A stretch of 22,323 nt of DNA from Acidimicrobiia bacterium (GTDB lineage Bacteria; Actinomycetota; Acidimicrobiia; Spongiisociales; Spongiisociaceae): assembly GCA_041576165.1 (NCBI GenBank), contig JBFGLM010000066.1, positions 1 to 22,323 on the forward strand, written 5' to 3'. Below are positions 2,433 through 22,323 of this stretch, one piece after another. Positions within the stretch are counted from its first letter, which is position 1, and each line of letters opens with the position of its first letter. A program made the position numbers and the translations under genes. A model generated the notes under the pieces. It made no database searches, was not told the DNA's origin, and saw nothing but the letters and a program-made list of their open reading frames with translations.

Positions 2433-3341
2433 TCATTGCTGCTGTTGTATCTCTGCCACCGCCGGGTCGGGTGGACGTGGCTCGAACCGATACCGGCCCA
2501 GCGGGTCGCGGGACATGGATACCGATGCTTCCAGCCCCGAGTTGGAACTCGAACCGTGAAAGACGCCCCGAAAGGGAGTGACATCCTCGTAATCGCGCCC
2601 ATGGCCAATCTTGACGTGCCGTTCGCCGACCTCGAGCTGGTTGGTCGGGTCGAGGCCCCACCAGCCGAACCCGGGAATCCACACTTCGATCCAGGCATGC
2701 GTGCTGACTTCGATCTCGGCGTCCGGCGGCGCGTCGCCCGACGATGAGTCGAGGGCATACAAATAGCCGCTCACATAACGGCTCGGAACGCCCAGGCTGC
2801 GCAGCACCGCCAGTGCGAAATGGGAAAAGTCCTGGCATACGCCGACCCGGTCGCGGAATACATCCTCCACCGGCGTACCGACTTCGGTGGCGCCCGGTCG
2901 GTAGGTGAGATGGCTGCCAACCGCAGCCTGCACGCGACAGGCCGCATCCACCACGCCGCCGTGGCCGGCGACGGCGTCCCGCCCAAAGTCGGCAACCTCA
3001 TCGTCCCACTGCACATGAGGTGACGGGGCCAGGAATTCATAGTGATCCACGCCCTTGGGCCAGGGTGCTCCTCCCTGGGGAGAGCCGCCCGGCGACGTTT
3101 CCGCCGACGCCGCCGCCGCGACCGTCAACCGTGTGTGTGGCTCGACCACGGCGAAGACATCAACCCAAGTGCCCCAATAGTCGACATACGACCGGACCGA
3201 GGCCGGCGGATCAACCTCGACTCTGTAATCGTGAAGCCGCTGGCGCTCATTGTCGGCCGGCCTTGCCCGCAACAGATTGTGCGACTGCACGACCTCGCCG
3301 TCGTAGTCGAACCGTGAGACATAACGGATGTCCAACCGCAT
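2433..3341 (-). CDS. Transglutaminase-like family protein with bacterial transglutaminase N-terminal domain
   Basis: Catalytic triad GVCQDFSH, THAWIE, GLDPTN; GHGRDYEDVTPFRG; start overlaps the alpha-E stop (alternative GTG 3344). Confidence 0.92.
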   Translation of the reverse strand: MRLDIRYVSRFDYDGEVVQSHNLLRARPADNERQRLHDYRVEVDPPASVRSYVDYWGTWVDVFAVVEPHTRLTVAAAASAETSPGGSPQGGAPWPKGVDHYEFLAPSPHVQWDDEVADFGRDAVAGHGGVVDAACRVQAAVGSHLTYRPGATEVGTPVEDVFRDRVGVCQDFSHFALAVLRSLGVPSRYVSGYLYALDSSSGDAPPDAEIEVSTHAWIEVWIPGFGWWGLDPTNQLEVGERHVKIGHGRDYEDVTPFRGVFHGSSSNSGLEASVSMSRDPLGRYRFEPRPPDPAVAEIQQQQ

Positions 3342-4279
3342 CACACAGCCTCGTACGGATGAAGGGCTGTCGTGGAGCTACGGAATAGGTCACGGCGAAG
3401 GGTCTCGGACACGTCGCGAATGCCAATCTCCAGTTGCCGTATCAGATCCCCCAGCGCCGGATCACGAACATTGGGGACGTCGGCGAATTCGACGCCGGAC
3501 CTCACCCGACCCAGCACGCGCTGCGCCTCGGTCGCCTGGCTCCGTCCGTAGGCCAGCTGGAGATCGGCCTCACAGCGGCGTAAACAGAACTGCACGCTGC
3601 ACGGCGCGTCGGTGCCGGTCAGGAGAAAACGCACGACGTCGTCCGCCCGGGCCGAGGCGCCGTACAGCTGTGTGAACGCGTGCAGCCCGGAAACGGATCG
3701 GAGCACCCGAGTCCACACCTCGAAGGCTTCGCCACCCACCACTCGGTGCACGTCGACGTTGCGCAGCGTCATCTCGGCCCGTTCCAGGAACCGGCCGATC
3801 AGCAAGAACCGAAATCCGTCGGAGCGGACCATGGAATCGTGGACCACGCCGGCGATACGCTGAGACTGAATCCGCATCCAGTCGAAGAACTCAGCGGGCT
3901 GGTCGATCAGCTGTTCGGCGGTCCGAGGGCTCCGCAGGCGCAGATGCAGCTGATTGACAACCTCGAGAAGGTCGATCGGGACCAACTCCCGCACGTTGTG
4001 CAGACTCTCGCGCGCGGCGGCAGCGGACGACACAACCGAGCCCGCGTTGTCAGGGTCCGCAACCAGGAAGAAGACAATCGCATCGGAAGTGAACGCGGGA
4101 TTACCCACGGCAAACACGTCGTCCTGGTACAGGACGGCGAGCAGCTCCCGCAAGCGGTCCTCAGAGTCGGCCGTGCCGAGCTGCGACAGGCGGGCGACGT
4201 CGAGCAACCGGGCGGTCTGCATGGCTCGCTCCAGGTACCGTCCGACCCAGAACAACAGCTCGGCGTGGCGGGACAGCAT
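3341..4279 (-). CDS. Alpha-E domain-containing protein
   Basis: MLSRHAELLFWVGRYLERA and a second ER motif IGRFLERAEMT; lies between the ATP-grasp and transglutaminase genes. Confidence 0.92.
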   Translation of the reverse strand: MLSRHAELLFWVGRYLERAMQTARLLDVARLSQLGTADSEDRLRELLAVLYQDDVFAVGNPAFTSDAIVFFLVADPDNAGSVVSSAAAARESLHNVRELVPIDLLEVVNQLHLRLRSPRTAEQLIDQPAEFFDWMRIQSQRIAGVVHDSMVRSDGFRFLLIGRFLERAEMTLRNVDVHRVVGGEAFEVWTRVLRSVSGLHAFTQLYGASARADDVVRFLLTGTDAPCSVQFCLRRCEADLQLAYGRSQATEAQRVLGRVRSGVEFADVPNVRDPALGDLIRQLEIGIRDVSETLRRDLFRSSTTALHPYEAV

Positions 4280-4281
4280 TG

Positions 4282-5724
4282 TCAGCGTGTCTCCGCCAGC
4301 ACCCAGGTGTCCTTGGATCCTCCCCCCATGGATGAGTTGACGATCAACGAACCCTCCGGCAGCGCCACCCGGGTCAGACCGCCCGGCACCACACGGATCG
4401 ATTCGCCCGCAACCACGAACGGACGAAGGTCCAGGTGGCGGGGACGCAACCCCTGATCGATCAGCGTGGGGTGGGTCGAGAGGTTCACGACCTCCTGCGC
4501 GATGAAACTGCGCGGATGGCGCTCGACTTCGGCACGGACGGCGGATAGCTCGCTGTCGGTGGCTCGGGGGCCGATCACGATCCCCTTGCCACCCGCCTCC
4601 GCCACGGGCTTGACGACCACCCGATCGAGCCGGTCCAGCACCTCACGCCGCTGCTCCGGATCCCACATCAGATACGTTTCAACGTTGGGGAGGATCGGCT
4701 CCTCATTCAGGTAGTAGCGGACGAAGTCGGGTACGAAGGCGTACACGCCCTTGTCGTCCGCTACCCCATTGCCGATCGCGTTGGCCAGTGTGACCGTCCC
4801 AAACCGCACCGCCGACATGAGGCCGGGTACCCCGAGCACCGAATTGCGATTGAACGCAACTGGATCGAGAAAGTCGTCGTCGACCCGGCGGTAGACCACG
4901 TGCACTTGCCGCAAGCCGCTGGTCGTGTGCATATACAGTTTGTGGTCGTTGACCACCAGGTCCCGGCCCTCGACCAGCTGCACCCCCATCTTCCTCGCCA
5001 GGAATGTGTGCTCGAAGTAGGCCGAGTTGTACACACCGGGCGTCAGCACCACCACCGTTGGGTCGTGAATGCCGTTGGGGGCGAGCTCCTCCAGAGCTCG
5101 CAGCAAGAGGCTGCCGTAGTCGTCGACCGAGCGTACGGCGTGGCGGGCGAACACGACCGGAAACGCTCGCTGCATGGCGGCCCGATTCTCGAGAACGTAA
5201 GAGATTCCGCTCGGGACCCGTAGGTTGTCCTCCAAAACCCGGAAAGTCCCCTCTTCGTCCCGCACCAGGTCGATCCCGGACACGATGCAGCGCACCGAGC
5301 GGGCCACCGCAATCCCCTGTGCCTCGCGGCAGAAGCCGTCGGAGGAATGCACCAACCAGCGGGGAATCACACCATCGCCGATCACCGAGCCGTCGCCGAC
5401 ATACACGTCCTCCAGAAAGGCGTTCAGCGCCCGGACTCGCTGGGCGAGACCCGCCTCTATCGAAGCCCATTCCGGCGCCGAGATGATGCGCGGGATCAGG
5501 TCCATCGGCCAGGTCCGCTCGACCCCTTCGTCTGCCCCATACACTGCGAAAGTGATTCCGAGGTTGCGAAATGTTTCCTCGACCGTGCGCGCCCGCTCGT
5601 CAAGCTCCCGCGGGTCCATCTCCGACAGCCTCTGGACCAGCTCCCGGTAATGCAGCCGGGCGCCGTCGTCTCCAAACACCTCGCAGTAGCCGTCGACGCG
5701 TGGATAGTCGCTGAGCAGATTCAT
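4282..5724 (-). CDS. Circularly permuted type 2 ATP-grasp protein
   Basis: VLEDNLRVPSGISY, LTPGVYNSAYFEH, YRRVDDDFLDP, ANAIGNGVADDK, GGLTRVAL, VNSSMGGGSKDTWVL. Confidence 0.95.
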   Translation of the reverse strand: MNLLSDYPRVDGYCEVFGDDGARLHYRELVQRLSEMDPRELDERARTVEETFRNLGITFAVYGADEGVERTWPMDLIPRIISAPEWASIEAGLAQRVRALNAFLEDVYVGDGSVIGDGVIPRWLVHSSDGFCREAQGIAVARSVRCIVSGIDLVRDEEGTFRVLEDNLRVPSGISYVLENRAAMQRAFPVVFARHAVRSVDDYGSLLLRALEELAPNGIHDPTVVVLTPGVYNSAYFEHTFLARKMGVQLVEGRDLVVNDHKLYMHTTSGLRQVHVVYRRVDDDFLDPVAFNRNSVLGVPGLMSAVRFGTVTLANAIGNGVADDKGVYAFVPDFVRYYLNEEPILPNVETYLMWDPEQRREVLDRLDRVVVKPVAEAGGKGIVIGPRATDSELSAVRAEVERHPRSFIAQEVVNLSTHPTLIDQGLRPRHLDLRPFVVAGESIRVVPGGLTRVALPEGSLIVNSSMGGGSKDTWVLAETR

Positions 5725-6459: not shown

Positions 6460-9400
6460 GTGTTGCGTCGTGTAGTACCGCCGCTCTTCGTTGTTGCTGC
6501 GTTGACGGGCGCCCTCCTCCCCGCCGGAGCCGCTGAGCCGACCACGGCCGAAGTCCCTCGGCCGCGTGCCGTGGAGGTAGGCCGGGGTCCGTCCGTCCAC
6601 CTGCCGGAGGATGCCCGCACCTCACTACGGCTCCGTTCGGGATCCGTCGACACTCGAACGCCGGCCGCCGCGGACAAACTACGAACGCTGGGCCCTGGAC
6701 CTCTGGTCCTGCAGTTCGAAGGACCGATCCGCCGATCAGATCTGGCACGGCTGCGGGAATCCGGTGCGGAGCTGCTGGCCATTCTCCCCGATCATGCCGT
6801 GCGGGTCCGGACCGACAGGCCGGACCGACTGGCGGGCATCGAACGCATTCGCTGGGCTGACCGGCTCCGACCAGAGCAAGTGATCCACCCCCAGCTCGAC
6901 GGGACCCAGCTCGTTCGCATCGTCTTGGACCCGGGATCCGATGTGGAAGCGGCCGCTGCCACCGTCGCCTCCGCCGGTTCTACCGTCGTCCGCAGTTATG
7001 ACTCCGGGCTGATCGCAATGGCAGATCGGGCCGCGTCGATCGAGATCGCTCGGGCTGTGCCGGCCCAGTGGATCGAGCCATGGTCACTGCCCGAGCCGCA
7101 CAACGAGTACGGCGCCGCCATCGTCGGCGCCGACATAGCCAACGATCTCGGGTATGACGGCTCGACCCAGATCGTGGCCGTAGCCGACACCGGACTGGGA
7201 GCCGGCACGGCTTCCAACGCACACCGCGACATCCCGGCCGACCGGGTGGCAGGCATCGCCGACTACCCCGGCTCCAGCGGCTTCAGCTGCTGGAATGCAT
7301 TCCCGGACGGGCCCATCGACGTCGATACCGGTCATGGCACCCACGTGGCCGGCAGCGTGTTATCGGGTGGCGGGCCCGCCGGAGAGGGAAGGGGAGCGGC
7401 CCCCGGTGCATCCCTCTACTTTCAGGCAGTGGAGGACTACGTCGACTACATCCTGCTCTGCGCCGGTCTGCAAGACGGGTATCAGTTGATCGGCCTCCCG
7501 GCCGATCTGGGGGATCTCCTGCAGGATGCGTACGACCAGGGCGCGCGGATCCACCAGGATTCGTGGGGCGCCAGCGCGGCAGGTGAGTACACCGCCGACA
7601 GCGCAGCAGTCGATAGTTTCATGTGGCAACACCAAGACATGCTCATGGTGGTATCGGCCGGCAACGACGGCAGGGATGGAGACGGCGACGGGGTGGTCGA
7701 CGATGGATCGATCGGCTCACCGGCTACCGCCAAGAACGTGCTGTCCATCGGAGCCTCAGAGAATGCCCGGTCCGACCTCTATCCGTGCGACGCTGCGCTC
7801 ACCTATACGACCTGCGGGCTGGACGGCGGCATCAACACCCTCAACACCTATGGTTCGTCCTGGCCGGCCGACTTCCCCGCGGCGCCGTTGTTCGGGGATC
7901 CTTCCGCCGGCGGCGCTCAACAACTGGCTGCGTTCTCCAGCCGCGGGCCCACCCAGGACGGCCGAATCAAACCCGACGTCGTAGCGCCCGGCACCTGGGT
8001 CCTGTCCGGCTACTCGGATCTCTACCAGGAACAGTACGACCCCGCACCCAACCCGCGGAACGGCGCGTATCAATCGGACGGCTGGGGATTCCCCTACGAC
8101 GAGCACTACAAATACTTTGGCGGAACGTCGATGGCGGCCCCGATTGCATCCGGTGCCGCGGCGATCGTGCGGGACTACTACACCAAGGCGCACGGTCTGA
8201 GCTGGATCAGTGGGGCTCTGGTCAAAGCCACACTCATCAATTCGGCGACGGATATCGCGGATGAAAACAACGACGGCGTCGACGACAACGCATTGCCGAT
8301 CCCGAATATGCACGAGGGCTGGGGCCGGGTGGACGTTGCCGCCGCGACCGACGAGTCCCATACCTGGTTTGACGACGGTTCGGTCGCCACCGGTACCCAG
8401 GTGACCTACGCCACTGCGCTCGAGACCGGCACAGTGCCACTGAAGGTCACCCTTGTCTGGAGCGACTATCAGGGTACCGGCTCATGTGGATCCTGCCTGG
8501 TGAACGACCTCGATCTGATCGTGACGGCTCCGGACGGCGAGCAGACTTACGTCGGCAACAACTTCTCCGGTGGCTGGACGCCCGAGGGAGCGGCCGCAAC
8601 CGATCAGGTGAACAATGTCGAGAACGTGTACATCGAGGTCCCGGAAGCCGGCGTCTGGACTATCACAGTCACCGGCTCGGACGTCCCCGTCGGCCCCCAG
8701 CCATTCGCCCTCGTCATCGATGCCGATTTCGACGAGAGCATCGACCTGGTGGCTCCCACCTGGACCAACCCCACGCTCGAGGCGGCCGGCATCACCAAGA
8801 CTTCGGCCACCCTCATCTGGTCGGGAGCATCGGACGACGTAGGGGTCGTTGCCTACGACGTCTATTCGGACGCGTCGCTGCTCGAGACGACGACATCGAC
8901 CAGCGCCGCGCTCGCCGGGCTGACGCCGGACACCGCGTACTCGATCAGTGTCCAGGCGCGCGATGCGGCCGGCAACGTAAGCTCCGGCGGTCCCAGCCTG
9001 ACGTTCACCACCATCGAAGATGACCCGCCCGACTGGTCCGGCGTGTTGCTGTCCCGATCCGACGTCGGCGAGACTCATCTGACGTTGAGCTGGGACGCTC
9101 CGGTCGACGCTTCGGGCATCGAGACCTATTTGGTATACCAGGATGAGACCCTGATCGGTCAGCCCGGCGGTTTGCAGCTCGCCGTGACAGGCTTGCGGCC
9201 TGCGACTGCGTACAGTTTCGTGGTGGAAGCCCGCGACGTCCACGGCGCGACCAGCACCGACGGTCCCGCGCTGAGCGTCACCACCGCCCGGGATTTCGCG
9301 GACACCAACGGTCACACCTTCGAAGCTGACATCGCCTGGCTGTCCGGAACCGGCATCACGCAGGGGTGTGACGAAGCAGGCAACTTCTGTCCTGACGACT

Positions 9401-9816
9401 CCATGACCCGGGCCCAGATGGCCTCGCTGCTCGCACGCGCGCTGGGCCTACCGATCCCGGCCGGCAATCGCTTCGGTGACGTCTCCGGTGTGCATACCGG
9501 CAACATCAACGCCATCGCCGAAGCCGGAATCACCATCGGGTGTAGCACCGACGGGACACGCTTCTGCCCGAACGACCCTGTGAACAGGGCGCAGATGGCG
9601 ACTTTCATCGACCGTGCCTTTGTCTTGCTAGGCGCAACGACCGACTACTTCTCTGACGATCAAGGCTCCGTCCACGAAACAGCCATCAACCGGGTGGCGG
9701 AGACGGGCATCACGCTGGGCTGCCGGCCGGGCTTGTTCTGCCCGTATGACAACGTGACCCGCGGCCAGATTTCGGCATTTCTCCACCGAACCTTCGTGAA
9801 CCTGGGCCTGGAATAG
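6460..9816 (+). CDS. Secreted S8 subtilisin-like serine protease (KP-43-like) with C-terminal beta domain, two fibronectin type III domains and three SLH-like repeats
   Basis: Signal peptide; catalytic VAVADTG, GHGTHVAG, GGTSMAAP; SAGNDG oxyanion motif; FSSRGP..DGRIKPD; LVNDLDL; FN3 motifs GLTPDTAY and GLRPATAY; SLH-like GITQGC..FCP..TRAQMA repeats. Confidence 0.93.
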   Translation: MLRRVVPPLFVVAALTGALLPAGAAEPTTAEVPRPRAVEVGRGPSVHLPEDARTSLRLRSGSVDTRTPAAADKLRTLGPGPLVLQFEGPIRRSDLARLRESGAELLAILPDHAVRVRTDRPDRLAGIERIRWADRLRPEQVIHPQLDGTQLVRIVLDPGSDVEAAAATVASAGSTVVRSYDSGLIAMADRAASIEIARAVPAQWIEPWSLPEPHNEYGAAIVGADIANDLGYDGSTQIVAVADTGLGAGTASNAHRDIPADRVAGIADYPGSSGFSCWNAFPDGPIDVDTGHGTHVAGSVLSGGGPAGEGRGAAPGASLYFQAVEDYVDYILLCAGLQDGYQLIGLPADLGDLLQDAYDQGARIHQDSWGASAAGEYTADSAAVDSFMWQHQDMLMVVSAGNDGRDGDGDGVVDDGSIGSPATAKNVLSIGASENARSDLYPCDAALTYTTCGLDGGINTLNTYGSSWPADFPAAPLFGDPSAGGAQQLAAFSSRGPTQDGRIKPDVVAPGTWVLSGYSDLYQEQYDPAPNPRNGAYQSDGWGFPYDEHYKYFGGTSMAAPIASGAAAIVRDYYTKAHGLSWISGALVKATLINSATDIADENNDGVDDNALPIPNMHEGWGRVDVAAATDESHTWFDDGSVATGTQVTYATALETGTVPLKVTLVWSDYQGTGSCGSCLVNDLDLIVTAPDGEQTYVGNNFSGGWTPEGAAATDQVNNVENVYIEVPEAGVWTITVTGSDVPVGPQPFALVIDADFDESIDLVAPTWTNPTLEAAGITKTSATLIWSGASDDVGVVAYDVYSDASLLETTTSTSAALAGLTPDTAYSISVQARDAAGNVSSGGPSLTFTTIEDDPPDWSGVLLSRSDVGETHLTLSWDAPVDASGIETYLVYQDETLIGQPGGLQLAVTGLRPATAYSFVVEARDVHGATSTDGPALSVTTARDFADTNGHTFEADIAWLSGTGITQGCDEAGNFCPDDSMTRAQMASLLARALGLPIPAGNRFGDVSGVHTGNINAIAEAGITIGCSTDGTRFCPNDPVNRAQMATFIDRAFVLLGATTDYFSDDQGSVHETAINRVAETGITLGCRPGLFCPYDNVTRGQISAFLHRTFVNLGLE

Positions 9817-13440: not shown

Positions 13441-16134
13441 TCAGGTGTTCCAGGGATCGGGGGCGTCAGGATCCAGTTCATATCGCTTGATCGCTTCCGC
13501 CACGATCGGGGGTTCGATGTGACCCTGTTCGGCGAGCGAGGACAACACACCGACCGTGACGTGCGGTCCGTCGACCTCGAAGAAGCGGCGCAGCGCATCG
13601 CGCGTGTCGGACCGGCCAAAGCCATCGGTGCCCAGCGACGCGTAAGGCTGGTCGATCCAACGGGACACCTGGTCGGGAACGGTCCGCATGTAGTCGGTCA
13701 CCGCCAGCACCGGCCCGTTGACCCCGGACAGGGCACGACGGATAACGGGCACGCGCCGGTCCTCATTCGGGTGCAGTCGGTTCCAGCGCTCGGCCGACAT
13801 TGCGTCCTCACGCAGGTTCTTGTAGGACGTGACGCTCCACAGGGACGCCCCCACCCCGTAATGCTCATAGAGCTCGCGTTGTGCCCATTGCGCCGCGGCG
13901 TGGAGCGGGCCTGAGAACAGGATCGCCGCCCCGAACCGGGAGTCGTCGGGTGCCGGCGACCACTGGTAGATGCCGTCGATGATCCCCTGATCGACGCCTT
14001 CGGGTTTGGCGGGCATCGGGTAGTTCTCGTTGTAGATGGTGATGTAGTACATGACGTCCTGGTTCTCGACGTACATGCGCCGCAGGCCATCTTCCACGAT
14101 GGTGGCCAGCTCGTAGGCGAACGCCGGGTCGTATGCCATCACCGTCGGCACGGTTGATGCGAGCACGTGGCTGTGCCCGTCCTGGTGCTGGAGACCCTCC
14201 CCCATCAGCGTGGTCCGTCCGGCCGTGGCGCCCATGAGGAATCCTCGGGCCCGGGCGTCAGCCGCCTGCCAGATCAGGTCACCCACCCGCTGGAATCCGA
14301 ACATCGAGTAGAACGTGAAGAATGGCACCATCGGCACGCCCCGATCGGCGTACGCGGTGCCCGCCGCAATGAAACTGCACATCGACCCGGCTTCGGTGAT
14401 GCCCTCCTCCAGGATCTGGCCGTCTTTGGCTTCCGCGTAGGACAGCAACAGCGAGGCGTCGATCGGCTCGTAGAGCTGGCCCATGGCGGCGTAGATCTTG
14501 AGCTCTTTGAACAGTGAGTCGAAACCGAAGGTGCGGGCTTCATCTGGCACGATTGGCACAACCCGCGGTCCGAACTCCGGATCACGCGCCAGACCGCGCA
14601 ACAGCCGGGCGAAGGCCATGGTGGTCGACGGCTCCTGGGTGCCGGTGCCGGCGTGAAACTCGTCGTAAACCTTCGGGTTGGGCAGGTGCAGCGGGCGCTT
14701 GATCCGGACCACCCGTGACGGCAGTGCTCCGTCGAGGGCCTTGCGCCGCTCCATCATGTACTCGTATTCGGGCGAATCGACCGGCGGCCGGTAGTACGGG
14801 GGTTCCCTGCCATCCTCCAGCGCCTCGGCCGGTATCTCGGCCTCGAGATGGATGCGGGTCCGCAGCTGACGCAGCTGTGCGTTGGACAGCTTCTTGATCT
14901 GGTGGGTGGCATTGCGGGCTTCGACATCGGGCCCCAGCGTCCATCCCTTCACGGTCTTGGCGAGGATCACGGTCGGCGCACCTTCGGCCTCGGTGGCTGC
15001 CTTGTAGGCGGCGTACAACTTCCGGTAGTCGTGCCCGCCCCGAGGCAGCCGCTCCAGCTCTTCATCTGACAGGTGCGCGACCAGCTGGCGGAGGCGGGGA
15101 TCGGGACCGAAGAACTCCTCCCGGATCTGGCTACCCGGCAGAGCCGTGATCCGCTGAAACTCCCCATCCACGGTGGTATTGACCTTGTTGAGCAGGACGC
15201 CGTCCACATCGCGCATGAACAGCTCGTCCCAACCCGAGCCCCAGATGACCTTGATCACGTTCCACCCGGCGCCCCGGAACACCGCTTCCAGTTCCTGGAT
15301 GATCTTGCCGTTGCCCCGCACCGGGCCGTCCAGGCGTTGCAGATTGCAGTTGACTACCCAGATCAAATTGTCGAGTTTTTCGCGAGCCGCCAACGAGATC
15401 GAACCCAGCGTTTCGGGCTCATCGGTTTCGCCGTCACCGAGGAAGCACCACACACGAGAATCCGACGTGTCGTCCAGCTCACGGTTGTGCAGATAACGGT
15501 TGAAGCGCGCCTGATAGATCGACGCGAGGGGGCCCAACCCCATCGACACGGTGGGGTACTCCCAGAAGTCGGGCATGAGTCGCGGGTGCGGGTAACTGGA
15601 CAGGCCGTCCCCATAGATCTCCCGCCTGAAGTTGTCGAGATGCTGCTCGTCGAAGCGGCGGGCCAGGTACGCCCGGGCATAGATGCCGGGCGCGGCGTGT
15701 CCCTGGATGTAGACGTGATCGCCTGGTAGACCGTCTTCTTTGCCGCGGAAGAAGTGGTTGAAGCCGACGTCGTACAGCGCGGCGGAGGACGCGAACGTGG
15801 ACAGGTGCCCGCCGATACCCTCCGCATGCATGTTGGCCTTGACCACCATGACCGCCGCGTTCCATCTCACGAAACGTCGGATCCGGCGCTCCAGGTGTTC
15901 GTCGCCGGGGAACCAGGCCTGCTCCTCAGGCGGGATCGTGTTCACGTATGGCGTGCTGATCGTGGCCGGGATCCCCACCTGAAGCTCCTTGGCCCGCTCC
16001 AGCAAGCTGGCCACCAGGAACCGGGCCCGGGTCTTGCCCTGGAAGTTGACGACCGCTTCTAACGAATCGAGCCACTCCTGAGTTTCGGTGGGGTCGATAT
16101 CGGGAAGCTGGTGGAAGAACCCATCAATAATCAC
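13441..16134 (-). CDS. aceE: Pyruvate dehydrogenase E1 component, homodimeric type
   Basis: DIDPTETQEW, GGHLSTFAS, SSYPHP, TVSMGLGP, TPP motif GDGETDEPE..NCNLQRLDGP, EGLQHQDGHS, GTDGFGRSDTR; GAGGTG 6 nt before GTG 16134. Confidence 0.97.
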   Translation of the reverse strand: MIIDGFFHQLPDIDPTETQEWLDSLEAVVNFQGKTRARFLVASLLERAKELQVGIPATISTPYVNTIPPEEQAWFPGDEHLERRIRRFVRWNAAVMVVKANMHAEGIGGHLSTFASSAALYDVGFNHFFRGKEDGLPGDHVYIQGHAAPGIYARAYLARRFDEQHLDNFRREIYGDGLSSYPHPRLMPDFWEYPTVSMGLGPLASIYQARFNRYLHNRELDDTSDSRVWCFLGDGETDEPETLGSISLAAREKLDNLIWVVNCNLQRLDGPVRGNGKIIQELEAVFRGAGWNVIKVIWGSGWDELFMRDVDGVLLNKVNTTVDGEFQRITALPGSQIREEFFGPDPRLRQLVAHLSDEELERLPRGGHDYRKLYAAYKAATEAEGAPTVILAKTVKGWTLGPDVEARNATHQIKKLSNAQLRQLRTRIHLEAEIPAEALEDGREPPYYRPPVDSPEYEYMMERRKALDGALPSRVVRIKRPLHLPNPKVYDEFHAGTGTQEPSTTMAFARLLRGLARDPEFGPRVVPIVPDEARTFGFDSLFKELKIYAAMGQLYEPIDASLLLSYAEAKDGQILEEGITEAGSMCSFIAAGTAYADRGVPMVPFFTFYSMFGFQRVGDLIWQAADARARGFLMGATAGRTTLMGEGLQHQDGHSHVLASTVPTVMAYDPAFAYELATIVEDGLRRMYVENQDVMYYITIYNENYPMPAKPEGVDQGIIDGIYQWSPAPDDSRFGAAILFSGPLHAAAQWAQRELYEHYGVGASLWSVTSYKNLREDAMSAERWNRLHPNEDRRVPVIRRALSGVNGPVLAVTDYMRTVPDQVSRWIDQPYASLGTDGFGRSDTRDALRRFFEVDGPHVTVGVLSSLAEQGHIEPPIVAEAIKRYELDPDAPDPWNT

Positions 16135-16290
16135 TTGTTGCACCTCATGTCGTTCACCGGGCTCATTCGCCGCGGCCCGCCGGGCCGACCGCACGCGCGC
16201 CACCTCGACCCGGATCTGCGCGCGATCACACCCGGCCCCCTGCGTCAGCTCAACTCTATCCTCTTCCGGCGCAAGCCGGAGTCGAGCGGA

Positions 16291-16944
16291 ATGCCACATC
16301 TAGTCGAACTCAGCCACGTCATAAGCGCCGGGATGGTCACCTACCCCGGCCTTCCGGGTCCGGTGATCACGGATCATCTCAGCCGTCACCAGGCAGCGCA
16401 GCACTACGGGCCCGGGGTGACGTTCCACATCGGGCGCATCGAAATGGTGGCCAACACCGGAACGTACCTCGACGTCCCGTCCCACCGGTTCGCCGACGGT
16501 GCCGACCTGGCCGATCATCCACTCGAATCGATGGCCGATCTCGCAGGCCTCTGTGTTCGGACATCCGGGCTCAAGGCCATCGGCGCGCAACACTTCGAGC
16601 GTCTCGACCTCACGCACAAGGCAGTGCTCGTCCACACGGGCTGGTCTGAGCATTTTGGAACGGAGCGGTACGCCGACGATGCCCCGTTCCTCACCGGCGA
16701 TGCCGCCCGGCTTTTCGTCGAGCAAGGGGCTTCCCTGGTTGGGATCGACTCGATCAACATCGACGACATCGGAGACATGACTCGCCCGGCCCACACCCAG
16801 CTGCTGGCGGCGGGGATTCCGATAGTGGAGCACCTGACCAACCTGGAGGCGCTGCCGGATCACGGTTTCCGTTTCTTTGCCCTGCCGCCCCGAATCGAGG
16901 GGATGGGAACATTCCCGGTCAGAGCGATTGCGCGAGTGGATTGA
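16291..16944 (+). CDS. Cyclase family protein (kynurenine formamidase-like)
   Basis: ELSH..GMVTYPG, NTGTYLDVPSH, LVHTGWS, VGIDS, PAHTQLL, IVEHLTNL, PVRAIA. Confidence 0.9.
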   Translation: MPHLVELSHVISAGMVTYPGLPGPVITDHLSRHQAAQHYGPGVTFHIGRIEMVANTGTYLDVPSHRFADGADLADHPLESMADLAGLCVRTSGLKAIGAQHFERLDLTHKAVLVHTGWSEHFGTERYADDAPFLTGDAARLFVEQGASLVGIDSINIDDIGDMTRPAHTQLLAAGIPIVEHLTNLEALPDHGFRFFALPPRIEGMGTFPVRAIARVD

Positions 16945-16957
16945 CCGCCGCCCGGGT

Positions 16958-17527
16958 TCAGCCCCCCATCGCGACCAGCTGATCGAGCGTCTGACGCAGG
17001 TTGTCCTCCCCGATGGCGCCAGGCCATCCTCCCAGCACCGTCTCGTCGGCCGACACCAGGACGGTCGTCGGCGTGCCGCGGGCGGCAAAGAACTGCCACA
17101 GTTGCTCGTTGGGATCAAAGGCCCATTTGATACGGCCCGACGGCATCCACTCCCTCGCTCGGGCGGAGGTGGTTGCCGCGTCGCTCCGGGCACCGATAGC
17201 CAGGAAGGCCACGTCGCCGGCGTACTCCTCGCTGAGCTGTTCGAGGACGGGCAACTCCCGCCGGCAATACGGTCACCACTCGGCCCAGAACACCAGCATG
17301 ACCGGAGTGGCGACCTGCCCGAAGTCGAAGGTAGACCCGTCCGCCAGGGTCAAGGAGATGTTGGGGATCACGACCCCGCCCGGTGTCGACGTGGGCGGCG
17401 TCGAGTCGATGATCGGTGCCGCCTCCGCCACGCCCGGCGCCGGCGCGACCCCGGTTGCCGTGCCGCCGCAGGCAGCCGCCACCAGGGCGAACGCAACGAG
17501 CGCCAGAATCCGGGACATGGGCGCCAT
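16958..17527 (-). CDS. TlpA/ResA-like thioredoxin-fold lipoprotein, probable selenoprotein (UxxC; TGA at 17275-17273)
   Basis: ORFs 17273..17527 and 16958..17254 are in the same frame; readthrough gives VFWAEW-U-PYCRRELP; lipobox LVAAAC; cis-Pro motif GTPTTVLV; alternative start 17518. Confidence 0.88.
17246..17262 (-). promoter_or_regulatory. Candidate bacterial SECIS hairpin
   Basis: mRNA GGCGGG-AGUUG-CCCGUC; loop begins 16 nt after UGA with G at loop position 2. Confidence 0.55.
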
Positions 17528-17602
17528 ACAACCAGCTCATGGGACACAGGGGAGATCAGTGTCGGGTGTACGTCGTTTCCCCGAGAGGGCGATGTCGGCG
17601 CA

Positions 17603-17637
17603 GCCGAGCCGCTATTGCTCCTGGCTAGCGGCTCGGC
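17603..17637. terminator. Perfect 12-bp inverted repeat, possible terminator or stabilising hairpin
   Basis: GCCGAGCCGCTA-N11-TAGCGGCTCGGC, about 50 nt downstream of the minus-strand stop at 17685; no U-tract. Confidence 0.4.
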
Positions 17638-17684
17638 AGGCTACAGCGAGCCACTACCCTCGACCGTTGCGTTGCGCTGGCCAC

Positions 17685-18092
17685 TCAGTCGAGGGATATT
17701 TCCAACTCCGGGTGGCCCAGGGCGCGGGCGGCTGCACTGACCACGCGGGCGTCGTCGTCGAGGCCCTTGTCGCTGTTCAAGTCGTCGGAGGCGTCGCCGG
17801 TCAGAGTGAAGTAGTCGACTGCGCCTCGAATGAGCGCCCGGCATTCGGCGTCGTAGGGACCGAGGGCGATCAGAGCGTGGAGGGTCTGGGCGATGCGTCC
17901 CGCCAGAATCAGATTCACGTCCTGATTGATCGTCTGCGCTCCCTCTAGGTAGTCGAGGTGCGCGCTGACCTGTTCCAGCGACCGCTGTAAGCCGTCGAGC
18001 GAGGTCTCGTGGCAGAGGTTCAAGAAGCGAACGCGCTCTATTGGTGACAGGGCAGCATCGGCGACGTCGCGGGCAAGCGCATGTATGTCCAT
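17685..18092 (-). CDS. Hypothetical helical protein with an acidic YF-x4-DA-DD-x5-GLDDD motif (reminiscent of YkvA/DUF1232)
   Basis: GAVDYFTLTGDASDDLNSDKGLDDDARVV; TATCCT 8 nt upstream of ATG 18092. Confidence 0.75.
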   Translation of the reverse strand: MDIHALARDVADAALSPIERVRFLNLCHETSLDGLQRSLEQVSAHLDYLEGAQTINQDVNLILAGRIAQTLHALIALGPYDAECRALIRGAVDYFTLTGDASDDLNSDKGLDDDARVVSAAARALGHPELEISLD

Positions 18093-18186
18093 GCGGCGGC
18101 AGGATAGATCGCGCGGTGCGCGGTATGTGGCGACAGGGCGGTCGGATCTCGTCACCTTCTTGATTTGGGGGTACGATGCCTGCTTC

Positions 18187-18267
18187 ATGCCACGTCCCAT
18201 GCAGTGCTGCCGGTGTCGTTGCGCTCGGGTGAGTCGCCCGGGCACCGCCGCTGTGTGCGCTGCCTGA
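18187..18267 (+). CDS. Putative Cys-rich leader peptide MPRPMQCCRCRCARVSRPGTAAVCAA
   Basis: TACGAT -10 at 18172-18177 just upstream; four Cys in six codons (18205-18222); lies ahead of a sulfur-metabolism operon. Confidence 0.65.
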   Translation: MPRPMQCCRCRCARVSRPGTAAVCAA

Positions 18268-18337: not shown

Positions 18338-18448
18338 GTGATCAACCCCGTCATCGGAGATTCACCCGTTCCGCCCGCCGCCGGCGGCGCAGAGCCGCAG
18401 CAGCCGCACCACCGTGCAGTTCACCGCCGCGGGCACCCACATGTCTGA
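18338..18448 (+). CDS. Putative 36-aa coupling ORF (MINPVIGDSPVPPAAGGAEPQQPHHRAVHRRGHPHV)
   Basis: AGGAG at 18327-18331, 6 nt before GTG 18338; stop overlaps the rhodanese start (ATGTCTGA). Confidence 0.5.
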   Translation: MINPVIGDSPVPPAAGGAEPQQPHHRAVHRRGHPHV

Positions 18449-18851
18449 GCGTGTGCTCGAGCTGGGGCTCGAGCAGGCTTGGGAAATTCTGGCCGCAGAA
18501 CCGGATGCCGTACTGATCGATGTCCGTACCGAACCCGAATGGCAGTTCGTCGGGCTGCCCGATCTGTCCTCGTTGGGCAAACAGCCCCTACTCGTGCCGT
18601 GGGTGCGATATCCGGGCACACCCAACGAGCACTTCGTCGACGACGTGCGACAGGCTGGCGTACATCCTGATCAGCCGGTGCTGCTGTTGTGCCGCTCGGG
18701 GCAGCGCTCGCGAGTGGCGGGGGCAGCCCTGGTGGAAGCTGGTTACAGCCGCTGCGTCAACATCACCGCCGGCTTCGAGGGGCCGATTGATCACGATGGT
18801 CATCGGTCCGGCGGATGGCGAAGCCACAGCCTCCCGTGGAGGCAGTCATGA
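18441..18851 (+). CDS. Single-domain rhodanese-like sulfurtransferase
   Basis: LIDVRTEPEWQFVGLPD, active-site loop LCRSGQRS, GFEG..GW...LPWRQ. Confidence 0.93.
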   Translation: MSERVLELGLEQAWEILAAEPDAVLIDVRTEPEWQFVGLPDLSSLGKQPLLVPWVRYPGTPNEHFVDDVRQAGVHPDQPVLLLCRSGQRSRVAGAALVEAGYSRCVNITAGFEGPIDHDGHRSGGWRSHSLPWRQS

Positions 18852-20017
18852 TGCGAGAGGCCACGATCATGGTTCGAGGCGGCCTGGACCGCAGCCAATT
18901 CGACGAGACTGCCGAGGCGATCTATCCCACATCAGGGTATGTGTACGCCTCGGCGGCCGAAGCTGAGGCCGCCTTTGCCGGGGAGCTGGATCGGTTCATC
19001 TACTCCCGGTACGGCAATCCGACGGTCTCCATGTTCGAAGAACGATTGCGTCTCCTCGAGGGGGCCGAGGCCTGCATGGCCACCGCCAGCGGAATGGCGG
19101 CCGTCTACGCCGCACTTGCGAGCCACTTGGCCGCGGGAGACCGGGTGGTTGGCTCCCGCGCGCTGTTCGGCTCTTGTCACGTGATCCTGACCGAGATCCT
19201 TCCGCGGTTTGGCGTCGAAACCGTTCTGGTCGACGGAACAGATCTGGATCAATGGTCGGCGGCCCTGTCAACGCCCGCCCAAGCGGTCTTTGTCGAGTCG
19301 CCCTCAAACCCCGGCCTGGAGATCATTGACTTGGCGGCGGTGGCTGAGCTGGCCCACGCCGCCGGGGCGATCGTCATCGTCGACAACGTCTTCGCCACCC
19401 CGATCCTGCAGAAGCCGCTGACCTTCGGCGCGGATGTTGTGGTGTACTCCGCCACCAAGCACATCGACGGACAAGGACGGACGCTGGGGGGCGCGGTGCT
19501 CGCAACCGAGCAATACATCAGCGACACGCTGATGCCGTTCCTGCGCCATACCGGGCCCAGTTTGAGCCCGTTCAACGCGTGGGTGCTCCTCAAAGGGCTG
19601 GAGACACTCCGGTTGCGGGTAGACGCGCAGAGTTCGGCGGCGGCGACGATCGCAGCCAAGTTGGCCGGGCATCCCAAGCTGGCATACGTCCGATACCCCA
19701 CGCAGGCCGATCATCCTCAGGCCGAACTGGCAAAGGCGCAGATGGAGTTGGGCGGCACGGTCGTCACTATCGGGATCGACGGCGGCCGCGACGATGCATT
19801 CCGGTTCGCAGACGCGCTCGAACTGTTCGACATTTCGAACAACCTCGGCGATACCAAGAGCCTCGTCACTCATCCGGCCACGACCACCCACCGCCGAATC
19901 GGACCCGACGCTCGGGCTGCCTTGGGGATCGGCGATGGAATGGTCCGGCTGTCGATCGGGCTGGAGGCCCCGTCCGACCTCCTCGAGGACCTGGAGCAGG
20001 CGCTCCGGGCCGTGTAA
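18848..20017 (+). CDS. metZ: O-succinylhomoserine sulfhydrylase
   Basis: RSQFDETAEAIY, YSRYGNPTV, PLP Lys in YSATKHIDGQGR, ISNNLGDTKSLVTHPATTTH; ATGA overlap with rhodanese and GGAGG RBS at 18838-18842. Confidence 0.93.
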   Translation: MMREATIMVRGGLDRSQFDETAEAIYPTSGYVYASAAEAEAAFAGELDRFIYSRYGNPTVSMFEERLRLLEGAEACMATASGMAAVYAALASHLAAGDRVVGSRALFGSCHVILTEILPRFGVETVLVDGTDLDQWSAALSTPAQAVFVESPSNPGLEIIDLAAVAELAHAAGAIVIVDNVFATPILQKPLTFGADVVVYSATKHIDGQGRTLGGAVLATEQYISDTLMPFLRHTGPSLSPFNAWVLLKGLETLRLRVDAQSSAAATIAAKLAGHPKLAYVRYPTQADHPQAELAKAQMELGGTVVTIGIDGGRDDAFRFADALELFDISNNLGDTKSLVTHPATTTHRRIGPDARAALGIGDGMVRLSIGLEAPSDLLEDLEQALRAV

Positions 20018-21938: not shown

Positions 21939-22323
21939 GTGACGGACGCAAGCTTCCGGGGTGCGCCAAGCCTCGACATTGCCCGCATCAGGGCCGACAC
22001 GCCCGGCGCGGGAGATCACATCCACCTCAACAATGCCGGTGCGTCGCTGCCGCCCCGGCCCGTGCTGGACACGCAGCTTCGGTACCTGCACGAGGAAGCG
22101 GTGAGAGGAGGCTACGAAACGGCGGATGCTCACCAGCGCGAGATCGCTGCGGTCTACGGCGCGATCGCGTCTTTGATCCGCTGCGAGCCCGACGAGGTAG
22201 CTATCACGTCAAACGCTACCGAGTCCTGGCAACTGGGTTTGCACAGCCTGGCGTTGGAGCCGGGCGACCGAATCCTCACCGGCGAGGCCGAGTACGCCTC
22301 CAATTTCATCTCCTTTCTCAAGC
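21939..22323 (+). CDS. 3'-truncated aminotransferase class V-fold PLP enzyme (cysteine desulfurase / C-S lyase-like)
   Basis: Manual translation: LDIARIRADTPGAGDHIHLNNAGASLPP...RGGYE...EVAITSNATESW...GDRILTGEAEYASN; open to the window end; start codon uncertain. Confidence 0.88.
   Translation, partial: MTDASFRGAPSLDIARIRADTPGAGDHIHLNNAGASLPPRPVLDTQLRYLHEEAVRGGYETADAHQREIAAVYGAIASLIRCEPDEVAITSNATESWQLGLHSLALEPGDRILTGEAEYASNFISFLK

Follow-up and report, generated by a model that had tools for sequence, protein, structure and literature searches.

A Probable Selenocysteine Codon in a TlpA/ResA-like Thioredoxin-Fold Gene of an Acidimicrobiia Bacterium and Its Relatives

An Interrupted Thioredoxin-Fold Gene

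Does a TGA triplet at the place of an active-site cysteine (Cys) mark a broken gene or a codon for selenocysteine (Sec)? The question is raised by a locus on contig JBFGLM010000066.1 (C66), 22,323 nucleotides (nt) long and referred to as a whole as the window, of the Acidimicrobiia bacterium assembly GCA_041576165.1 (G000), which comprises 5.1 Mb in 161 contigs and is 96.5% complete and 7.5% contaminated. On the minus strand, two open reading frames (ORFs) that share one frame under genetic code table 11, 17273..17527 (84 amino acids, ending in FWAEW) and 16958..17254 (98 amino acids), are separated by a single TGA. An earlier note on this DNA had described the readthrough product FWAEW-[TGA]-PYC-RRELP and proposed a hidden selenoprotein; its description and coordinates proved correct on retranslation. 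From the comparative evidence set out below, the UGA of codon 85 is very probably decoded as Sec, which would make this a genuine selenoprotein gene.

When 16955..17527 (-) is translated with TGA as Sec (U), one frame of 189 residues is obtained (MAPMSRILALVAFALVAAACGG...FWAEW-U-PYC-RRELPV...GTPT...VAMGG), in which MAPMSRILALVAFALVAAAC-GG is followed by a stretch rich in Ala, Pro, and Thr, then by VMLVFWAEW-U-PYC-RRELPVLEQL and ARGTPTTVLV, and by LVAMGG at the end. The coding sequence occupies 16961..17527 (-), 189 codons including Sec85, as judged from the frame, the Pfam matches, and a structure model. Its sole internal stop is the TGA of codon 85 (17275..17273), which falls at the first Cys position of the WCxxC motif of the TlpA/ResA/DsbE-like thioredoxin fold, i.e., the nucleophilic position of U-P-Y-C, while the TGC of codon 88 (17264..17266, -) encodes Cys88, the resolving Cys of UxxC. 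The two table-11 fragments are halves of one domain because Pfam families extend across the TGA: Redoxin covers residues 54-164 (E 4.4e-13), and AhpC-TSA, Thioredoxin_2, and Thioredoxin also span or touch the site, with Redoxin and AhpC-TSA exceeding their gathering cut-offs. The interval 17527..16958 (-) holds a single intact gene, and its product is a TlpA/ResA/DsbE-type oxidoreductase with a thioredoxin fold. Translation may start at the ATG at 17527 or at that at 17518, the second of which fits a metagenomic fragment (P0030, 59% identical to the N-terminal part) that begins with MSRK....

The gene ends in a second TGA (16958..16960, -), which is without SECIS-like context (SECIS, Sec insertion sequence) and is read as a stop; 23 of the 33 orthologue copies likewise end in TGA. 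A genome-wide reassignment of UGA was considered and rejected because UGA also terminates this same gene and those 23 copies, and long table-11 ORFs are present throughout the window.

Conservation of the In-Frame TGA

Homologues were sought by a six-frame search of 60 related genomes and the window's own genome, with a cut-off of E <= 1e-10 for matches. The tallies of TGA and of selA over the 60 relatives include two unpublished genomes (G032 and G043), and the phylum-wide tally includes eight; no conclusion drawn here depends on the sequences of these genomes. Matches were found in 59 of the 61 genomes. All 57 matches at E <= 2.5e-21 carry an in-frame TGA; they stem from 50 of the 60 relatives and, in the form of this gene and its paralogue on contig C2, from the window's own assembly. 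The strongest match without an in-frame TGA has an E value of 2.2e-19. At 30 loci with 33 gene copies, from about 12 families of one order, every copy has TGA as the codon that aligns with residue 85, within FWA[ED]W-U-xx-C. Tandem copies occur in two genomes (three in one and two in the other), and five more high-scoring segment pairs in the same 30 loci represent adjoining paralogues with TGC. In three orthologues of the same order (G607, G524, and G497), the codon is TGC.

The distribution was also surveyed in wider samples. Among 201 genomes of the class, the family profile gave 44 matches at E <= 6.5e-41, 41 with TGA and three without, all from the same order or from the window's own assembly. 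Among 401 genomes of the phylum, matches stronger than E 1e-30 occurred only in the same order. When genome contigs were searched for FWAEWCxxC, i.e., for a motif with Cys codons, the matches were limited to distant Cys proteins (from Streptomyces and others) with at most 37% identity over residues 74-187, and of five named Actinomycetota/Acidimicrobiales metagenome-assembled genomes reached via the Cys-pattern loci, none had a match at E <= 1e-12.

These counts bear on the possibility that the TGA arose through an error of sequencing or assembly and is confined to the present assembly, an idea to which the origin of the sequence, a fragmented and partly contaminated metagenome bin, lends some initial plausibility. 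However, 17240..17599, including the TGA, is spanned with 0 differences by a contig from a different sample, which is only partly independent because it belongs to the same study, and independent metagenome protein calls either end at FWAEW (P0030 and P0035) or start just past the motif (P0015 and P0026). Together with the TGA in the orthologues of 50 relatives, this makes an error barely conceivable and settles the concern of the earlier note that the TGA might be private to this assembly. Three further runs from three other studies (X5-X7) contain identical contigs over parts of the stretch, none of those listed bridging the TGA.

In four metagenome runs from four studies with marine, soil, and sediment labels, the summed contig depth climbs from some 5 to 55-190 precisely across 17234-17296. 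This peak, which corresponds to FWAEW-UGA-xxC-RRELPV, is built of many short contigs that are 85-95% alike. A stretch of some 60 nt comprising the UGA and the hairpin described below thus appears to be common to many organisms, the depth table being silent on whether each of them retains the TGA.

A SECIS-Type Hairpin Downstream of the UGA

A SECIS-type hairpin (17246..17262, -) begins 10 nt after the UGA and is composed of GGCGGG (17262..17257), the loop AGUUG (17256..17252), and CCCGUC (17251..17246); it takes up codons 90-94 and part of codons 89 and 95 (R89 R90 E91 L92 P93 V94 L95). In section 5 of a 2026 review (PMC13188914), the bacterial SECIS (bSECIS) model is described by a loop of 3-9 nt, a G in the first two loop bases, a distance of 16-37 nt from the UGA, and a minimum free energy (MFE) of at most -7.5. 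The window hairpin agrees with this model, with its 5-nt loop AGUUG (G at loop position 2, then U), a spacing of 16 nt between UGA and loop, and an MFE of -8.6 kcal/mol. Its stem has 6 bp, and 7 bp are found in most relatives.

The hairpin was examined in a gap-free alignment of the 33 copies (65 nt per copy), in which the helix is formed by columns 13-19 with columns 25-31. Of the 231 cells of this seven-pair helix, 93.9% are paired, and compensatory changes on both sides are seen in five of the seven pairs (23 cells); none of 500 shuffles reached the observed covariation. When the 3′ arm was slid by 1-3 columns, pairing fell to 38-70%. Codon choice points in the same direction. Leu at U+7 is encoded by UUG or UUA in 32 of the 33 copies, these two codons accounting for 106 of 570 Leu codons in the remainder of the ORFs, and Pro at U+8 by CCC in 31 of 33 copies, compared with 191 of 607. 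As judged from these codon counts, the hairpin, encoded in the R-R-E-L-P-V codons, constrains synonymous sites.

Cys-containing forms served as controls. In the 33 Sec forms, six or seven pairs are formed in 32 cases, and the MFE ranges from -7.4 to -15.2; in nine adjoining Cys paralogues folded in the same register, only 1-4 of the 7 pairs are formed with an MFE of 0 to -3.0, and in the three TGC orthologues of the same order, 2-4 of 7 pairs with an MFE of -0.6 to -1.3. In the latter, the Leu codon is CUG in two and replaced by AUG (Met) in the third, and RRELPV is relaxed to RLELPI, NKELPV, or NVEMPI. The absence of the hairpin from Cys orthologues and paralogues alike indicates that it tracks the UGA and not the protein. 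An Rfam search of 17100..17400 at E <= 10 placed no SECIS model at the site; away from it, matches to SECIS_3 (E 5.5, other strand, 17125..17177) and to 'skipping-rope' (E 5) were returned.

Coding Constraint Past the UGA

Among 31 aligned proteins, 16 columns are invariant, of which nine lie downstream of residue 85 (C88, E91, L92, P93, A110, W135, P153, W168, and G170), and all 16 are intact in the window copy. For six close pairs of relatives, the ratio of nonsynonymous to synonymous substitution rates (dN/dS, Nei-Gojobori) downstream of the UGA is 0.18, 0.05, 0.06, 0.19, 0.29, and 0.17, which resembles the value for the 45 codons upstream.

These observations have to be set against the idea that the gene is a pseudogene, i.e., a TlpA-like gene inactivated by a nonsense change from TGC or TGT to TGA at the active-site Cys. 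The frame is indeed broken under table 11, a change from TGC to TGA takes a single base, and full-length Cys forms exist (P0003, P0007, P0009, P0011, P0014, P0022, and the three TGC orthologues). On the other hand, an inactivating change would hardly recur at one codon in all 33 copies from about 12 families of an order, accompanied by a co-varying hairpin that is gone exactly where the codon is TGC, and followed by sequence with low dN/dS and every invariant residue in place. A pseudogene is, on this evidence, highly improbable, and decoding of the codon as Sec remains the preferred interpretation.

Sec Machinery of the Assembly

The earlier note had suggested a search of the genome for selA, selB, selC, and selD, and all four are present in the assembly. 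Two tRNA-Sec genes with the anticodon UCA were detected at 79.9 and 72.9 bits, compared with a cut-off of 47 bits (C1:33376-33466 and C145:1292-1382), and two selA-selB pairs are located at C24:55512-58925 and C100:605-3957. The single selD (C1:171385-172317, -), which like the other machinery genes scores above its curated cut-off, carries one in-frame TGA, and the selenophosphate synthetase that it encodes is therefore probably a selenoprotein itself. Among the relatives, selA was found in 57 of 60 genomes (58 of 61 when the window's assembly is counted), with one selA gene in each of the 57.

The two selA-selB loci are about 69% identical to each other at the nucleotide level, and each is followed by a whiB gene. 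Because these loci are so divergent, the bin may mix two related organisms; together with the two tRNA-Sec genes, the two selA-selB-whiB loci may alternatively reflect a real duplication. Such a mixture would be immaterial to the conclusion on Sec because selA is present in 57 of the 60 relatives. The description of the host as an apparently aerobic actinobacterium fits its gene content, which includes six WhiB genes and two genes for haem-copper oxidase subunit I (COX1).

Fold, Export, and Proposed Mechanism

An AlphaFold2 model built from a 31-row alignment adopts a thioredoxin fold (mean pLDDT 86.3, pTM 0.75), in which Sec85 is flanked by strand 76-81 and helix 86-101, and strand 154-158 begins directly after Pro153. 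Averaged over blocks of ten residues, pLDDT is 51-71 for residues 1-40 and 81 for residues 41-50. None of W84, U85, C88, E91, P93, and P153 varies among the 31 proteins; the codon of Pro153 (17069..17071, -) occupies the place of the thioredoxin-fold cis-proline (T152-P153), its cis state being putative.

In a Foldseek search of the PDB, exported, membrane-tethered reductases were retrieved (E 7e-11 to 5e-8, TM-score on the target 0.62-0.89, identity 16-26%). The top matches included 4nmu, which is a thiol-disulfide oxidoreductase from Bacillus (TM on target 0.89), DsbF (3ios) and MPT53/DsbE (1lu4) of Mycobacterium tuberculosis, ResA of Bacillus subtilis, Etrx1 and Etrx2 of pneumococcus, CcmG, and the TlpA of Bradyrhizobium, for which complexes trapped with ScoI and CoxB (4txo and 4txv) were also listed; StoA of B. 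subtilis was retrieved as well. The solved chain closest in sequence is 3hdc, a thioredoxin-family protein of Geobacter with WCPYC (E 3.3e-10).

All 31 proteins begin with a hydrophobic N-terminal signal that ends in an invariant Cys (Cys20), preceded by an Ala19 that is conserved in at least 90%. In the window gene, the predicted signal peptide (17468..17527, -) has a lipobox-like VAAAC end, and Cys20 (17470..17468) would be the lipidated residue. It is followed by a low-complexity linker rich in Ala, Pro, Thr, and Gly (residues 21-50; 17378..17467, -), which would connect the lipid anchor to the folded domain; among orthologues, this linker is rich in Thr, Pro, and Ala and differs in length. 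Because the hydrophobic signal, the invariant Cys, and the variable linker recur in the 31 proteins, the product is presumably an exported, membrane-anchored lipoprotein. The lipobox, the linker, and T152-P153 were all found as the earlier note had described them.

Briefly, the following scheme may be envisaged. While the mRNA is translated in the cytoplasm, the hairpin 10 nt past the UGA would be recognized by SelB together with Sec-tRNA(Sec), and Sec would be inserted instead of termination. The preprotein would then be exported and acylated at Cys20, with the flexible linker tethering the domain to the outer face of the cell membrane. There, the selenolate could attack disulfides (or other oxidized sulfur or selenium species) of exported clients to give a mixed selenenylsulfide, which Cys88 would resolve with formation of an internal Se-S bond, and this bond would probably be re-reduced by a membrane electron carrier of the CcdA/DsbD type. 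Lipidation, the reductase direction, the link to CcdA, and the client are what we infer for this scheme. Sec at such sites is usually explained by its higher nucleophilicity at a low pKa and its easy recovery from over-oxidation, established chemistry that would apply here as well.

Weighing the Sec Interpretation

A third explanation would accept the gene as functional and dispense with Sec: the UGA might be decoded otherwise, by near-cognate read-through with Trp or Cys, or the product might be a functional lipopeptide of 84 residues, the hairpin serving in pausing or in mRNA stability. The sequence-based nature of the Sec assignment and the lack of an Rfam SECIS match at the site leave some room for this. 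However, the thioredoxin fold requires both halves of the frame; the position is that of a catalytic Cys replaced by Sec in many known UxxC selenoproteins, as listed in the table of the review (PMC13188914); and the hairpin follows the published bSECIS rules in a group of genomes where selA co-occurs in 57 of 60. Non-Sec decoding is considered very unlikely, and Sec insertion at codon 85 is retained as the reading of this gene.

Several observations nevertheless weigh against this reading or against parts of it. Selenium in the protein and expression of the gene are predictions from sequence. Folded singly, the 61 nt after the UGA are no better than shuffles (z = -0.84; 36 of 200 shuffles at least as good), so the evidence for the hairpin is comparative only. 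E91 and P93 are also kept in the adjoining Cys paralogues (CxxCxxExP), and conservation of RRELP is therefore partly a protein constraint and not a SECIS constraint. Given the contamination of 7.5% and the two divergent selA-selB loci, the owner of the contig could be either of two organisms. The comparison of the window copy with L023, its nearest relative at the DNA level (46% identical downstream), gave a dN/dS of 0.64 with saturated dS, which says little. What the dN/dS values demonstrate is thus purifying selection in the family, and not in the window copy by itself; relaxed selection past the TGA, which the earlier note had named as a counter-sign, is contradicted at the level of the family by the six close pairs. 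As to export, the lipobox has Ala at position -3 and not the textbook Leu. Finally, the window copy has neither a conserved neighbourhood nor a CcdA gene nearby, and for this reason its partner and substrate are guesses.

Relation to Known Selenoproteins and Thioredoxin-Fold Proteins

Thioredoxin-fold selenoproteins with UxxC have been predicted since 2005, when the rows 'Thiol-disulfide isomerase-like protein', 'Prx-like', and 'Thioredoxin' were tabulated for the Sargasso Sea (PMC1088965), and rows for 'Thiol:disulfide interchange protein' and 'Prx-like thiol:disulfide oxidoreductase' followed (Zhang et al. 2006, PMC1794560). In the table passages of these catalogues and of the later review (PMC13188914, PMC1794560, PMC1088965), the 'Thiol:disulfide interchange', 'Redoxin family protein' (PF08534, UxxC), and 'Prx-like' rows share with the window protein the thioredoxin fold, Sec as the first residue of UxxC, and the logic of a Cys-aligned UGA with a bSECIS. 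Redoxin (PF08534) is the best Pfam match of the window protein as well, and one of these rows may correspond to its family.

The closest counterpart is the 'Trx-like 1' selenoprotein family (COG0526, UxxC) predicted from Global Ocean Sampling (GOS) data (Zhang & Gladyshev 2008, PMC2398784). Under '#Trx-like 1', Dataset S1 of that study contains sequences like ...KKTIIIFWADYU-GVC-RRELPVVE...GQPISIVLD..., and the whole file has 71 occurrences of 'RRELP'. The reads show a lipoprotein-like N-terminus, FWADYU-G[IV]C-RRELPVV[ED], and GQPIS (PMC2398784), whereas the window protein is of high G+C, much diverged, and has FWAEW-U-PYC, with GTPT for GQP; the literal strings FWAEWU and WAEWU have zero occurrences in the supplement. 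The GOS family is a broad COG-level bin, and its reads were matched to the loci studied here by eye.

Genes near-identical to these reads were found in all five genomes of about 1 Mb from one genus of the same class (profile A2, E 5.7e-17 to 4e-13). The aligned codon of these genes is TGA, their translations read FWADY-U-G[IV]C-RRELPV, and in these A+T-rich genomes, the hairpin is AGACGGG-AGUU[GA]-CCUGUC, with six of seven pairs and an MFE of -7.7 to -8.7. Because the Dataset S1 reads have such corresponding genes in small genomes of the same class, the family is, as far as sequence likeness can tell, already catalogued, as a prediction, from ocean metagenomes. The novelty implied by the earlier note was thus overstated, the family having a place in the 2008 GOS selenoprotein catalogue (PMC2398784), and a specialist would be unsurprised since this kind of selenoprotein is already known. 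In the literature searched, no experimental work on the family was found, nor any account of the high-G+C, order-wide branch, of the hairpin, or of the ccm neighbourhood. The supplements of the deep-Sep paper might list the family; its main text contains no TlpA, redoxin, Actinobacteria, or lipoprotein. A 2026 Actinomarina preprint reports universal Sec machinery and about five selenoproteins per genome (by deep-Sep), with no 'thioredoxin' or 'TlpA' in its text.

With ResA, TlpA, CcmG (DsbE), DsbE and DsbF of M. tuberculosis, and Etrx, the window protein shares the fold and the motif W-[C/U]-x-x-C-x-x-E-x-P, including the Glu three residues past the second Cys. Its Glu91 presumably corresponds to Glu80 of ResA, and a structure entry of ResA E80Q is among the Foldseek matches. 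The ResA/TlpA/CcmG/Etrx proteins are membrane-tethered, as the window protein would be if its N-terminal sequence is read correctly; in contrast to it, all solved relatives use Cys, and the window copy lies outside any ccm operon.

Several closer assignments were tried and rejected. The NCBIfam model NF041054 (WAxxUGC_long) describes a ResA/TlpA-like selenoprotein, and such proteins are thus recognized as a kind by annotators; the window protein scores 25.1 bits against its cut-off of 300, the model having 354 positions compared with 189 residues and a UGC motif in place of U-P-Y-C. CcmG proper does not fit either: the window copy is outside a ccm operon, and on C2 a separate Cys-type Redoxin holds the ccmG place, with the Sec paralogue just outside and convergent. 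Nor is the protein a peroxiredoxin (AhpC/TSA), as its motif is W-U-P-Y-C with Sec first and not T/S-x-x-C(U), the Sec motif of peroxiredoxins being given as TxxU in the table of the review (PMC13188914). The AhpC-TSA match in Pfam arises because the fold is shared with peroxiredoxins.

Representation in Protein Databases

The earlier note had expected standard gene callers to split such a gene, and the databases bear this out. Among 5.8 billion clustered proteins (900 candidates), there was one full-length-sized match at E <= 1e-10, and a HMMER search of 1.84 billion representatives gave two matches at E <= 1e-30. The family is represented instead by N-terminal pieces ending in ...FWAEW (P0030 and P0035, 59-60% identical, and also P0087 and P0132) and by C-terminal pieces starting inside RRELPV (P0015, P0026, P0063, P0074, and P0135). 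Full-length Cys forms (the six listed above and P0010) occur in clusters of one or two members, some of them labelled 'thiol-disulfide isomerase/thioredoxin' by JGI. No NCBIfam model reaches its cut-off for the window protein, those for ResA, TlpA, and DsbE being far below.

Because callers split the gene and NCBIfam has no model that captures it, a conserved, presumably surface-bound redox enzyme is absent from annotations and from metaproteomic databases, and the worth of the present analysis lies in an annotation fix for a redox enzyme conserved across an actinobacterial order. In addition, the family amounts to a natural experiment, in which Sec forms have a hairpin of 17-19 nt through the RRELPV codons and Cys forms of the same order are without it. 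It is therefore a compact test case for the SECIS rules in high- and low-G+C Actinomycetota and for the benefit of Sec to an exported reductase in an aerobe.

Gene Neighbourhood and Possible Partners

On its 3′ side, the window gene is followed by a putative cyclase (16111..16941, +) and then by the pyruvate dehydrogenase E1 gene aceE (13444..16299, -), and on the other flank by an ORF of 186 amino acids with no assigned function (17688..18245, -). The copy of the nearest relative (G039) lies between genes for glucose-6-phosphate dehydrogenase (G6PD) and a sigma factor, and since these flanks differ, there is no conserved neighbourhood for the window copy. A scan of 16700..17900 for promoters and terminators gave none of either. 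About 0.9 kb upstream on the opposite strand (18414-20014, +), genes for a rhodanese-domain protein and a pyridoxal phosphate (PLP)-dependent enzyme of Cys/Met metabolism overlap by 34 nt; this pair would belong to sulfur (possibly selenium) transfer chemistry, and among the relatives examined, no copy of the gene was seen in such an arrangement.

GTPT, in place of the YQP or GQP found in most of the family, is common to the window protein, L023, and the Cys form P0003, which seem to make up a side branch. The other Sec paralogue of the assembly belongs to the main branch (C2:21071-21733, +; loci L132 and L147), contains one TGA, and is 42% identical to the window protein. It is located directly after trpD and is convergent with a System I cytochrome c maturation (ccm) operon, made up of genes for a Cys-type Redoxin and a TPR protein and of ccmH, ccmF, ccmE, ccmC ... 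ccmA (ABC ATPase), a layout that is also found in G019 and G039. C2 also carries the two genes of the CcdA/DsbD type (DsbD_TM) that were detected in the assembly.

In a count across the loci of 29 relatives, the most frequent neighbour is trpD (12 loci), followed by a Cys-type thioredoxin/Redoxin gene (10 loci, seven by Pfam and three more by tblastn), CbiM for Co/Ni uptake (6), acyl-CoA dehydrogenase (5), a Fur-family regulator (4), and Lgt (4). We take the protein to be a putative surface-tethered selenol/thiol reductase that would be recharged by CcdA. For the main branch, a client in cytochrome c or oxidase maturation is the foremost suggestion, made tentatively and with more doubt than confidence.

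A still broader proposal can be formulated, which we regard as rather unlikely in its full extent. In it, these proteins would be nearly universal, order-wide, surface-tethered selenoenzymes of aerobic, probably acidimicrobial, actinobacteria, which would partner either System I ccm and oxidase assembly or Fur-controlled Co/Ni uptake on the oxidizing side of the membrane, and Sec would be kept since a selenol survives an over-oxidation that kills a thiol. If this were true, exported Sec-reductases would be standard in respiratory-chain assembly of a major marine and soil lineage, which would contradict the view that selenoproteins are seldom kept by aerobic bacteria, as expressed in the 2026 review (PMC13188914).

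Some individual loci deserve mention. At L027, L029, L032, and L044 (also L026 and L047), the Sec gene lies between a Fur-family regulator and CbiM-PDGLE/CbiQ, an ECF-type Co/Ni uptake system, a setting that hints at metal-regulated expression or a metal-linked role. Long ORFs with a domain of prolipoprotein diacylglyceryl transferase (Lgt) adjoin the Sec gene at L031 (2073-3521, -) and L049 (1998-3503, -), as well as at L025 and L045; in the first two, a Cys-type thioredoxin-like stretch was detected inside the Lgt ORF by tblastn, and these ORFs may be thioredoxin-Lgt fusions. On C2, a DUF3179 protein (PF11376; C2:16088-17440, +; L132:4089-5441) is encoded by an uninterrupted ORF near CcdA-like and Cys-type TlpA-like genes; DUF3179 is listed as a family with Sec-containing members in the review's compilation (PMC13188914).

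Other Features of the Window

Three genes at 2436-5724 (-) encode a circularly permuted ATP-grasp protein (4285-5724), an Alpha-E domain protein (3344-4279), and a transglutaminase-like protein (2436-3344). The ORF at 6460-9813 (+) encodes a subtilase of 1118 residues with fibronectin type III and S-layer homology domains, which is likely a cell-surface protease. At the ends of the window, bases 26-178 have three matches to a repeat on C31, and the last 141 bases (22183-22323) are identical to C65:22366-22506 in reverse orientation, probably an assembly-graph junction.

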